The position numbers and the translations under genes are program-made. A stretch of 63,979 bases of DNA, filler included, from Malassezia furfur (Eukaryota), in assembly GCA_052055015.1 (NCBI GenBank). It is 6 parts of 6 records of this genome, joined end to end, with 100 filler letters (N's around TTAATTAATTAA, not from the genome) between each part and the next. Parts side by side here need not be neighbours in the genome. Positions count along the whole stretch, not along the records: positions 1 to 11,048 come from JBQJIT010000373.1; 5 more parts are not named here. One strand, 5' to 3'. The notes beneath the pieces were generated by a model, which saw nothing but the letters and a program-made list of their open reading frames with translations, did no database searches and was not told where the DNA came from. How positions within the stretch are numbered: the first letter of the stretch is position 1; every line of letters begins with the position of its first letter. Below, one piece after another: positions 2,920 to 6,761 of this stretch.

Positions 2920-3967
2920 ATGGCGTTTGCGTTTGGGTTCGAGGAGAGCGAAGAGGACGTCGTGCCCACCACGCAGTCCGAGGCTGCGCCGCTGCAGCCT
3001 GCGCGGTGCATCCCGGAGAGCGAACTTGTAAGCACAAAGACCCTCACACAGCGCGCTTTGCTCCCTGAGAAGCTGTCCTTCTCCCCGCTTTCGACCGCGC
3101 ACGGTCAGGAGCATGCACAACTCGCGCGGCGTGACCTATTCGACGTGCGCTTCCAGCTGCTCAATGAGGACAAGGATGTGGTCGATGCATCGACGGACCT
3201 CATTCCGGGTGTATACGAAGGTGCGTCGGCGTGCCTCTCACACAGGTGGGCTCAAGACCTGGGAGTGTGCACTGGACCTCATCACCGAGCTCGCCGAGCG
3301 CATCGCAGACTATCGTAAGCAGGACGCTTCGTGGCCTTCGGGGCGACACATTGCCGAAATCGGATGCGGAACGGCCGTGCCGACGTGCTACCTTCTGCAA
3401 ACCTTGTTGACTACCGAGTCGTCGGGCCCTACGGTAGTGGACTTGTGCGATTACAACGAACAGGTCCTGTCGCTGGTGGTGTATCCCAACCTGCTCCTCG
3501 CATGGTACTTCTCCGCCGGGCCTGGTGCCAACCGGCCCGTCGAGGCCGGCGAGCTCGAATTGGACGATGCGCTGCTTGCGCAGTTCGACGATGCGCTGCG
3601 TGCCAAACAAATTCAATTGCGATTCTTTTCGGGAGGGTGGGACACGCTCTCGATTACCGACGACCAAGTGCCGCGGGTCGACGTGCTCCTCACGAGCGAA
3701 ACAGTCTATGCAGTTCCGCGTCTCCCATCCTTATGCGACGTCTTGCAGCAGGCTTCGTGGCCGACGCTGCTCGACACGCCCAACGCTGGTCTCGCGCCGC
3801 GTACGACGCTTTGTCTCGTTGCCGCCAAAGTGCTCTACTTTGGCGTTGGGGGCGGGACGCAGGCGTTCCACATCCAGCTGGCCAGGCACCGCGGATGGAG
3901 CATCCCCTGCCGCCAGATCACCACAGGCGTTGGTCGTGTCGTGCTGCGAGTCGGGTTCGAGCCGTAA
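2920..3967 (+). CDS. HPM1: Histidine protein methyltransferase Hpm1/METTL18; intron 3221..3245 (25 nt)
   Basis: Starts MAFAFGF. Splicing restores DLIPGVYEGGLKTWECALDL. Also has EIGCGT, DYNEQVL, LTSETVY and AAKVLYFGVGGG. Confidence 0.9.
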
Positions 3968-3980
3968 ACCAGAGCCTGCT

Positions 3981-4613
3981 CTAGACGTCGGATATGCTCC
4001 CTACATCGCTCATCTCGTCGTCCTCGTCGTCCTCTTCCGCATCGTTTGCATCTGTCGCAGACGCGTTTTTGCTCGCGTAGTTCGTGACATATTCGCGCAC
4101 CCTGCGATTGTATGCATCTGGGTCGCGCATCAGTAGCGCGGCTGCCTCTCCATTTAGCGGATCGGTAGGATTGGGGTATCGCAACAGCTGGGGTAGGAAG
4201 GTCTCAAAGATATTGATGCAGTCAAACATGGGTGACCACGTCTGATTGATCACATCCAGGCACACCGACCCGGATCCTTCGTCGATGTTGGGGTGGAAGA
4301 TTTTGTTCACGAAGCCGATCGACGGCGATTTGTATGGGAATTGATCCGGCAGCTCGACATGGACTCGCCACACTCCGTTCTCATAGGGTGCTAGGTGAGT
4401 GCGGGGAGACGTACTTTCGGCGGGTCCATGGAATTGCACGTAGAAGTTTTGCATATTATCATCCACGAGCGAGATTTCATAGTCGGACATGAGGCTGGGT
4501 AAGAGTCACAGATACACACAGTTTCATGACGTCCGTCTCGATGCGGCGCTTGGGCGAAGTGTAGAGGGAGGTTAGTCGCTGCTCCTGTGAGTAGGCAATG
4601 AGATACGTATCAT
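3981..4613 (-). CDS. UBC8: Ubiquitin-conjugating enzyme Ubc8/UBE2H; introns 4561..4610 (50 nt, AT-AC), 4495..4519 (25 nt), 4391..4414 (24 nt)
   Basis: Spliced N-terminus [21 protein letters not shown]. Contains [32 protein letters not shown] and an acidic tail. Confidence 0.92.
4561..4610 (-). other. Putative U2-type AT-AC intron immediately after the UBC8 start codon
   Basis: Minus strand reads ATG|ATACGTATCT...GACTAAC CTCCCTCTAC|ACT TCG CCC AAG. Of the splices I tested, only this one puts an ATG in frame with the conserved [13 protein letters not shown]. Confidence 0.8.
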
Positions 4614-4977
4614 GGCAGGTTGTGCAACGAGATGGGAGCCTGTATGCTAGGTGGGGACGTTTCACGGCACGAGCAACACAGCCCAACCCGGGGAAACGGT
4701 GGCGAGCAATTGCACGACCCTACGCTTGGGCCCAGTGCGCTCCACCCCGCTTGCGTAATTGGCTTTATCAGCCTGTCATCTTAACGGGGAAGTATGTCCT
4801 CCACCACCGCGGCGGTCGCCGCGTTCGGTAAGCCATCACGCCGACGTCCACCGAGGCGCCTGGCCCTGGCGTATACTGGTAGGGTACTCTCCCGTAATAT
4901 CTAGTGGATCATAGCACTGCAGACTTGTTTCTGCCCCCCCGAACGACATCGTGTTGGGCACGGCCGGTCGCTTAGTA

Positions 4978-5513
4978 ATGGAGGTGGACTCTGTGGGATC
5001 GGCACAGCTTCGAACGACGATGGAGGCCAAAGAAATCCTGGCCAACATTGCGTTTACCACGTCGGGTGCGCTCGTGGACTGTGTCGACAGTATGTGTGGG
5101 CCTCTCTGACATGCAGAAAAAGTGTTGGTGATCCTCCGCGATGGGCGCAAACTGATTGGCATTCTTCGGGCCTACGATCAATTTGGTATGTGCTCTGGCC
5201 TAACGCAGCCAACTTGCTTCTTCACGAAACGATTGAGCGCGTATACCTCGGGAATCGGTACGGCGACATCTTTAAGGGTCTCTACATTATTCGCGGTGAG
5301 AACGTCGTCCTGTTGGGTGAAGTCGACCTGGAAAAAGAAGATGAGGTGCCGGCTTCGGTGGCCTCGGCAATCCCCTCGAGCGCGGTGCCCAAGCTGCTCG
5401 AAGCGTGTGCCGCCGAGAATGAGGCAAAGGAGAAGTGGGACAAGCAGCGTGCTGCAATTCTCCGGCGGGAATGCGGTTTCTCCGGTGAGGGTGCCGAAGG
5501 GGATAGTTACTAG
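4978..5513 (+). CDS. LSM1: Sm-like protein Lsm1; introns 5090..5116 (27 nt), 5186..5208 (23 nt)
   Basis: Spliced [46 protein letters not shown]...IRGENVVLLGEVD. Confidence 0.92.
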
Positions 5514-5532: not shown

Positions 5533-6761
5533 CTATGATTTCTTCTCGCCCTCGTTGCGCTTCTCGCCCTCGTCGCGCTTCTCGCCCTCATCGCGCTTCT
5601 CACCCTCGTTGCGTTTCTCTTGCTCCACGAGCTCCTGAACGACGGTGCTAGTCTGCTCAGCGACGCTCTTTTCCTCCTCTTTGCGGATTTCGGCGGCAAG
5701 CTCGGCCTCCGACTGGCCAAGCTCCTTGATGCGTGTTGGCAGCAGCACCAACTCCACGTCGGGGATCGCCGTCTCGACCTGCGTCAGCTCGAGCCAGGCG
5801 CGCAGAGACGCAATCATCTCCTCCACAGAAATGTTGGCAGCGCGACTAAGGGTTAGTGATTCACGTACAGGCCACGCTCCGTGCATGCGTCGGCGAGGAA
5901 CTCGATCGCATCCTCGCCTGGGTCGTTGAGTAGCTTGGACGTCGCGAGACGCATGTCATCCGTACGCAAATGCGCAAGATGGCGTCCCAGACGGCGTGCG
6001 CGTAGCGCCGAACCCCCCCACGTCGAGAGGTTGTATGTCACGACAAGTTTCTGCAGCGCTTCCTTGGGAAGCGGCGCAAGAGTAGCACCGGCGGCTTGCT
6101 CCTCGTACGGCGGCTGCATGGAAGGCACGTTCTGTACCATGTCGCGAAGAGCATTGACACACTCCTCGCGCTTCAGCTCAAACCGTTTCCGGATCTTGAG
6201 GCGCTGCGACGGCAGAATGCACGTCGACGGAAGAAGGAAAGGGGTATAGATTACCATCAAGGGAAGCAATTCTTCGATGGTTATCAGGATCAGCAAAAAG
6301 AGCGGCAGCTTCAACATGTCCGAAGAGTGGGTGCGACTGAGTCAGTTACAATATACGTACAGCAGTGTAGCCTCCTCGTAGGTAAGGTCTCTCCCCGTCT
6401 CAGCCACGTTGACTTTGATTTGCTTGACCAGGTCCCTGTTCCGCCAGATCTGCTTGACACCGTTCAGGTAGAAGCGGAAGAGATACTTGACCGTCGACCA
6501 CATGTTGCTCGCACGCTCACGCAAGCTGAGCTTCTTCTTTGTCTCTGTGACCGGTTTGTTTTGCGACGACGGATCGACGTCCAGGCGCGGCACCGTCGTG
6601 TGGATCCATTGTTGCGGTGCCCACGAGCGAACAGGCGCTGCGCGCATCCCCTGCATGCCACAGAGCGCCGGACGCACTGCGATCGGCATCCCCTTGGCAT
6701 GTAGCAGCAAGGAATGCCGTATCCGCAGAGAGAGTCCCTGCGCACACATCCGGGAGCCCAT
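5533..6761 (-). CDS. Mitochondrial LETM1-like (ribosome-binding-domain) protein; introns 6337..6360 (24 nt), 5846..5868 (23 nt); start approximate
   Basis: Basic presequence-like N-terminus. Motifs FYLNGVKQIW, DMLKLPLF, EELLPL...LPSTCILPSQ, HLRTDD and ACTERGL match LETM1-domain proteins. Confidence 0.7.
5542..5620 (-). repeat. 18-bp tandem repeat (about 4 copies) encoding EKR[N/D]EG at the C-terminus of the LETM1-like protein
   Basis: Repeated cttctcgccctcgtcgcg-like units; protein EKRNEGEKRDEGEKRDEGEKRNEGEKKS. Confidence 0.85.

Follow-up and report, generated by a model that had tools for sequence, protein, structure and literature searches.

In Malassezia furfur, the coding sequence of UBC8 very probably starts with an exon of three coding nucleotides, the ATG itself, followed at once by a U2-type AT-AC intron (4610-4561, minus strand) that the major spliceosome would excise. 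The gene lies in a 63,979-nt (64-kb) stretch of M. furfur DNA, which we refer to as the window. A first-pass annotation had proposed such an intron behind a 3-nt coding exon, and had further suggested that it forms a regulatory bottleneck on this E2 of the GID complex. The first part of that proposal stood, supported by an enumeration of possible splice sites, by the colinearity of the predicted protein with a relative (P0004) and by inserts of the same kind in two metagenomic contigs (L072 and L003); nothing was found to speak for the regulatory role. We infer the splicing event in M. furfur, the type of spliceosome and the branch point from sequence.

The gene occupies 4613-3981 on the minus strand and encodes a ubiquitin-conjugating enzyme of the UBC8/UBE2H type. 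With three introns taken out, a four-exon model gives a coding sequence of 531 nt plus stop codon, and a 177-aa product that begins MTSPKRR. Exon 1 has no coding bases other than the start codon (4611..4613). Going upstream from the conserved N-terminus, this is the first ATG reached, and the next one on the minus strand stands at 4779. The proposed AT-AC intron of 50 nt (4561..4610), placed by sequence reading and the in-frame join, is followed by exon 2 (4520..4560), which starts ACT TCG CCC AAG and ends in phase 2. Intron 2 (4495..4519, 25 nt, GTGTGT...CCCAG) yields on removal the MKLLMSDYE found in relatives. Exon 3 (4415..4494), intron 3 (4391..4414, 24 nt, GTACGT...CACTCACCTAG, ending CCTAG) and exon 4 (3981..4390, with the stop codon TAG at 3983-3981) complete the minus-strand model. 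Exon 4 carries the HPN motif, the catalytic Cys and the acidic tail, and its product matches Pfam UQ_con (E=3.8e-32), which together with the HPN motif and catalytic Cys identifies a UBC fold; in the protein search it was 97% identical to an annotated E2 of Malassezia brasiliensis, a likeness that most probably puts the source of the window near M. brasiliensis within Malassezia. Matches to proteins named E2 H or UBC8, together with the conserved N-terminus and the acidic tail, place the product in the Ubc8/UBE2H class, and as judged by these likenesses the gene is the UBC8/UBE2H orthologue. At its C-terminus the window protein reads ...SISDV (3984-3986), compared with ...SISDD or ...SISD in its closest relatives.

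Within the proposed first intron, the 5' splice site is ATACGT (4610-4605), so that the terminal dinucleotides are AT (4610-4609) and AC (4562-4561), as expected of an AT-AC intron. A branch-like GACTAAC at 4577-4571 would put the branch A at 4572, at a distance of 11 nt from the end of the intron, compared with 5-10 nt in local CTAAC introns, and is followed by a pyrimidine run and then CTCTAC, the 3' end being TAC at 4563-4561. Excising exactly 4610-4561 joins the ATG in frame to ACT (4560), giving MTSPKRR..., and boundaries shifted by one base (TA..CA) would give the identical mRNA. The frame of the conserved N-terminus is open back to about 4719 without any ATG. Left unspliced, the ATG at 4613 opens an upstream frame of 13 codons that ends at the TAA at 4574-4572. 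Re-reading 4613-4560 confirmed the layout given in the first-pass annotation exactly (ATG, 50 nt, then the codons of exon 2), together with its statements that the Ubc8 N-terminus has no in-frame ATG, that removal of the 50 nt restores that N-terminus, and that GACTAAC and TAC stand where a branch site and acceptor would be expected. PMC1557818 takes as the mark of a U2-type AT-AC intron a 5' site that is U2-like but has A at +1; ATACGT is such a site, being GTACGT except at +1.

This comparison rests on the splice code of the window. GTACGT is its dominant donor-like hexamer, with 77 sites as against 7 for ATACGT on both strands, which bears out the description of the UBC8 donor as the dominant one with its first G changed to A. 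Units led by GTACGT are mostly 18-42 nt long and have a common form, in which GTACGT is followed by about 10 nt, then ACTCAC, CTAAC or CTGAC, then 2-5 nt and YAG. The median length of the 30 candidate introns defined by the pattern GTRNGT..CTRAY..YAG is 25 nt, and by this pattern-based measure the 50-nt intron is about twice the local median, as had been claimed. A search for further introns of the composite form ATACGT..CTAAC..YAC, which had been proposed, found the UBC8 site alone in the 64-kb window, where two matches overlap; the expectation from dinucleotide shuffles was 0.05, and 0 of 100 shuffles reached two matches.

Another way to view the predicted N-terminus is through its protein relatives. 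A protein search retained 6213 of 6278 candidates at E<=0.001, and the best 120 of these 6213 were compared. The motif KRRIETD stands near the N-terminus in 84 of the best 120, and 68 of these 84 have a Met and exactly three residues before KRR, matching the AT-AC model; the others have a Met and 4-5 residues (7/84), longer odd prefixes (6/84) or no Met (3/84). P0004, a Malassezia-like protein from a Logan assembly with all introns removed, starts MAAPKRR, and the 177-aa model is colinear with it from residue 1 (157/176 identical, 89%). The best match of P0004 is in turn yeast Ubc8 (8pmq_E, 5.7e-70), again from residue 1, and it also matches human UBE2H. A protein from Kalmanozyma (P0013) begins with the same 22 residues as the 177-aa model.

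The same set of relatives contains gene models whose beginnings are in disorder. The annotated starts are internal in M. brasiliensis (MSNY) and M. pachydermatis (MKLL), and models from Tilletiopsis and Cristinia are labelled 'partial' and begin SSPKRR and SSPGKRR, one residue past the missing Met; gene finders had been predicted to mis-start this gene, and these four models are what that prediction describes. The UBC8 models of Coprinopsis, Panus and Schizophyllum carry aberrant prefixes. Odd N-termini of this kind among basidiomycete UBC8 proteins are consistent with a non-canonical intron behind the ATG that is widespread and has gone unrecognised. An annotated protein from a Malassezia species (P0012) reads MHTTPKRR, possibly from an ordinary in-frame start, and for this reason the AT-AC intron may not be universal in Malassezia. 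N-termini that are truncated, 'partial' or otherwise odd were noted in P0003, P0029, P0041, P0048, P0058, P0016 and P0119. The read-through open frames at 4480-4665 (minus) and 4598-4828 (plus) had no homologues in the protein search.

Metagenomic contigs extend the comparison to genomic DNA. A scan gave 582 pattern matches, of which 338 were confirmed as relatives, and the best 80 of the 338 were kept (49-83% identity); a close Malassezia relative was not found among these 80, the maximum identity being 83%. In 68 of the 80 kept loci, the KRR motif has an in-frame Met no more than 12 codons away; most of these loci are on ascomycete genomic contigs, or on cDNA-like ones, that read MSSPKRR. 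The remaining 12 comprise nine without the motif on the contig, one at a contig end (L027), one spurious match (L063) and L003. In none of the 80 kept loci does a GT-AG intron directly follow the ATG.

AT..AC inserts were found at this position in L072 and L003, as the comparison of UBC8 5' ends suggested in the first-pass annotation had sought. The genomic contig L072 reads AACATG/ATAAGT...(60 nt)...CAGACAC/ACC TCA ACA AAG CGC CGT, and the cDNA-like contig L021 reads AACATG ACC TCA ACA AAG, with exactly the 60 nt of L072 missing. L021 and L072 come from different species, related at roughly 88% identity; their exons are 86-95% identical, they have the 5'UTR in common, and the only gap in their alignment, 60 nt long, has AT at its start and AC at its end. 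The genomic contig L003 reads CATATG/ATGAGT...(55 nt)...ATATAC/GCC TCC CCG GGT AAA CGC, and offers no in-frame GT-AG option within 84 nt upstream. Intron 2 of the window likewise has a counterpart in both genomic contigs, with position and phase unchanged. Among named proteins, that of Coprinopsis cinerea comes nearest to each (L021 being 82.7% identical to it over 173 aa), with an unnamed protein, P0020, slightly higher for L003 (76% vs 74.9% for Coprinopsis), which suggests that L072/L021 and L003 belong to Agaricomycetes. The three 5' sites, ATACGT in the window, ATAAGT in L072 and ATGAGT in L003, each correspond to the expected local U2-type consensus, altered to A at +1. Between exon 2 of the window and L072 there are three differences, every one a synonymous change of a third base, so exon 2 is translated and initiation must lie upstream of it. 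The L072 insert contains an in-frame ATG (MFPSRH-TSTKRR), and an unspliced start is formally possible there. An internal in-frame AG is present in all three inserts, delimiting AT..AG units of 26 nt in the window (4585-4610), 36 nt in L072 (about 1212-1247) and 34 nt in L003 (20-53); these AGs may be due to chance or may be alternative 3' sites.

Removal by the minor spliceosome is unlikely, judging by the motifs. The branch box motif of U12-type introns is TCCTTAAC, and the proposed intron has none; its 5' site, ATACGTAT, departs from the U12 consensus ATATCCTT, just as the first-pass annotation had stated. A U12-type intron was rejected on these two failures, at the 5' site and at the branch box, and U12 motifs are likewise absent from L072 (ATAAGTCC) and L003 (ATGAGTAT). 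Rfam returned 0 families, with the 64-kb window as the whole of the sequence searched. The U12 consensus is taken here as quoted in PMC5029451, and minor introns and most minor snRNAs are reported in PMC10639083 to be absent from Dikarya, including Basidiomycota.

We propose instead that the first coding exon ends with the ATG and that the ordinary major spliceosome would remove 4610-4561. AUACGU would be recognised like GUACGU and would pair with U1 and U6 as usual, because it is the consensus GUACGU with A at +1, and GACUAAC would act as the branch site, with its A at 4572. The first and last bases of an intron interact, A pairing with C as G pairs with G. The second step would accordingly pick the 3' AC over the nearer AG, because a first-base A is compatible with a last-base C and not with a G. 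AUG would then be joined to ACU and a 177-aa protein starting MTSPKRR translated; in the unspliced transcript, the AUG would open the 13-codon frame and leave the conserved N-terminal helix without a start. An engineered AT-AC intron does splice in yeast, and ATAAGT, the 5' site of L072, has been published as the consensus for U2-type AT-AC introns in metazoans (both PMC5029451).

To see which other arrangements the DNA would allow, we enumerated all upstream ATGs with GT, GC or AT donors and AG or AC acceptors that restore the frame. From the ATG at 4613 this exhaustive enumeration found no in-frame GT-AG or GC-AG intron, and the 50-nt AT-AC intron is the only short one that gives a Met and three residues before KRR. 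A donor at ATGATAC/GTATCT was rejected, since none of the three nearby AGs is in frame with it.

The enumeration did bring out an internal AG at 4586-4585, overlooked in the first-pass annotation, which ends an in-frame AT..AG unit of 26 nt (ATACGT...TACTCACAG, 4585..4610, minus strand) nested in the 5' half of the proposed intron. Were this unit the true intron, the protein would have an N-terminus eight residues longer. It keeps the frame, its length fits the local median of 25, and its TACTCAC is similar to ACTCAC, a branch motif that recurs among introns of the window; but its CTCAC abuts the AG with 0 nt between them, compared with 2-5 nt in local introns, and an eight-residue extension is not seen in relatives, where long prefixes occur in 6 of the 84 motif carriers and are apparently mis-annotations. 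An A at +1 combined with a G as the last intron base blocks the second step of splicing, which counts against any AT..AG unit, and in L072, where an AG stands 4 nt ahead of the AC, comparison with the cDNA-like L021 does not place the site at that AG. We therefore consider it very improbable that the intron is this 26-nt unit, although the AG at 4586-4585 could serve as a minor alternative 3' site.

Equally to be weighed is a gene that is not spliced here at all, in which the ATG at 4613 would merely start an upstream frame, and Ubc8 would be translated from the Met of DVMKL or from a non-AUG codon such as the ACG at 4607-4605. The unspliced transcript does have the 13-codon upstream frame this would require, and annotators have chosen internal Mets of just this sort in M. 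pachydermatis and M. brasiliensis. Exon 2, however, is conserved at the protein level with synonymous changes only, the spliced relative P0004 starts MAAPKRR and aligns from residue 1 with the solved yeast Ubc8 8pmq_E, and a near-cognate start would sit just past an out-of-frame AUG. Taken together, these points make translation without splicing highly unlikely.

A first exon farther upstream, at the ATG at 4779 or 4836 or beyond and joined by a long GT-AG or GC-AG intron, is scarcely credible. In-frame combinations of this kind exist, for example from the ATG at 4836 with the donor GTTAAG and 66 nt to the AG at 4720, but the introns needed are 60-198 nt long (up to about 460 nt if length is not capped), the donors all differ from the local GTACGT consensus, and by read-through the models acquire from 8 to over 70 additional residues that are not conserved; the region of the upstream ATGs is, moreover, a divergent promoter common to UBC8 and the neighbouring gene. 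Long upstream GT-AG and GC-AG introns were rejected for their poor donors, atypical length and non-conserved extensions. That the true ends are GT..AG and the sequence or assembly is in error, or that the gene is decaying or dead, is extremely unlikely, as an error would have to strike twice, exactly at both terminal bases, the same AT..AC arrangement occurs in two unrelated contigs, and the remainder of the UBC8 gene is intact and highly conserved.

If the AT-AC intron is accepted, then it is probably old in Basidiomycota. AT..AC ends at the same phase-0 site in Malassezia and in two contigs nearest to Agaricomycetes, three sequences in all, point to common descent from before the divergence of Ustilaginomycotina and Agaricomycotina. 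What would have kept it there is a separate question. For the suggested regulatory bottleneck on the GID-complex E2 we found no evidence, and a frozen state guarded by a double-mutation barrier explains retention equally well. The neutral account fits the expectation that the single changes, to GT..AC or to AT..AG, should each impair the second step; the AT..AC state would be frozen because either change alone is harmful to splicing and because 5'-terminal introns are rarely lost. We also entertain, as an unlikely extension, the idea that the intron both predates the split of Ustilaginomycotina and Agaricomycotina and is a molecular fossil: an ancestral AT-AC intron of the U12 type, converted to use by the major spliceosome as the minor one was lost from Dikarya, and frozen since. 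The sole lead for this idea is that human UBE2H is among the 18 genes with a U12/U2 twintron, its U12-type intron being ancestral in vertebrates (PMC3564746, Table 1; the position of that intron is not given in the article's text). Neither UBE2H nor UBC8 is listed in the supplement of PMC10639083.

The surroundings of the gene are compact. A 311-codon open frame at 3032-3967 (+), for which Pfam gave no family, stops 14 nt short of the UBC8 stop codon (3981-3983, minus strand), and at this distance between convergent frames the 3' ends must overlap or abut. A divergent neighbour at about 4915-5510 (+) has short introns and frames that read ...KVLVILRDGRKLIGILRAYDQF... and ...LLLHETIERVYLGNRYGDIFKGLYIIRGENVVLLGE...; it presumably resembles an LSM/Sm-fold protein, and a Pfam search with its last exon alone gave no match. 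The open frame at 5856-6341 (-) contains a LETM1-like ribosome-binding domain (PF07766, E=2.1e-09). Beyond the window, a scan of GTDB genomes gave a single match, L081, a 254-nt contig in a Brenneria assembly that encodes part of a UBC-like protein (52 residues aligned at 42% identity), probably a eukaryotic contamination of the bacterial assembly.

The significance of the UBC8 intron, if it is real, is that it would be constitutive and needed for the full-length form of a conserved enzyme, and that it has apparently been kept at the same position across two basidiomycete subphyla. It would offer a clean natural system for the first-base/last-base interaction in organisms with the major spliceosome only, and a test case for how a non-canonical intron persists, whether through a frozen barrier, through selection or as a U12 relic. 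It would also explain the truncated, partial or odd N-termini of UBC8 models in many basidiomycete genomes, and annotation pipelines would go on repeating the mis-start wherever they disallow AT-AC ends or coding exons of 3 nt.

Natural U2-type AT-AC introns are extremely rare, numbering 24 among the 608,562 U2-type introns of the five model species in SpliceRack, and the same article mentions fungal xylanase genes hypothesised to have them (PMC1557818). The UBC8 intron resembles the 'AT-AC II' introns, such as those of human SCN4A and SCN5A, in its AT..AC ends, its U2-type 5' site with A at +1 and its lack of U12 motifs, and the 5' site of L072 is identical to the metazoan 'AT-AC II' consensus. 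Unlike those cases, its host is a basidiomycete yeast with 25-nt introns, it adjoins the start codon, and the predicted intron appears conserved from Ustilaginomycotina to contigs near Agaricomycetes. With the U12-type AT-AC introns it has the terminal dinucleotides in common, as well as the spacing of 11 nt between the branch A and the 3' end; they differ in their 5' site and branch box (ATATCCTT and TCCTTAAC) and in a machinery that is absent from Dikarya according to PMC10639083.

Closer parallels come from other fungi. In S. cerevisiae, an engineered actin intron with A as its first and C as its last base and an AT-AC isoform of RPL30 show that AT-AC ends can be spliced in a fungus without a minor spliceosome (PMC5029451). 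The RPL30 isoform is natural and made at a low level, 1-2% of transcripts, from a 5' site that is not U2-like (PMC5029451); by contrast, the UBC8 intron is consensus-like, and its removal would be constitutive and indispensable for the full-length protein. RNA-seq of Trichoderma longibrachiatum, also a member of Dikarya, counted 69 AT-AC junctions among 14,305, and PMC4324775 presents these as bulk counts without gene-level or conservation analysis. A proteogenomics paper on M. sympodialis admitted AT-AC junctions in its filter and gives a mean intron of 30 bp, the available portion of its text holding no AT-AC count. A full-text literature search turned up no description of such an intron either in UBC8 or in Malassezia. 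New here are the AT..AC inserts directly after the UBC8 ATG in two metagenomic contigs near Coprinopsis. Set beside these known systems, the UBC8 case apparently adds adjacency to the start codon, constitutive use and antiquity to a known but rare class of introns.
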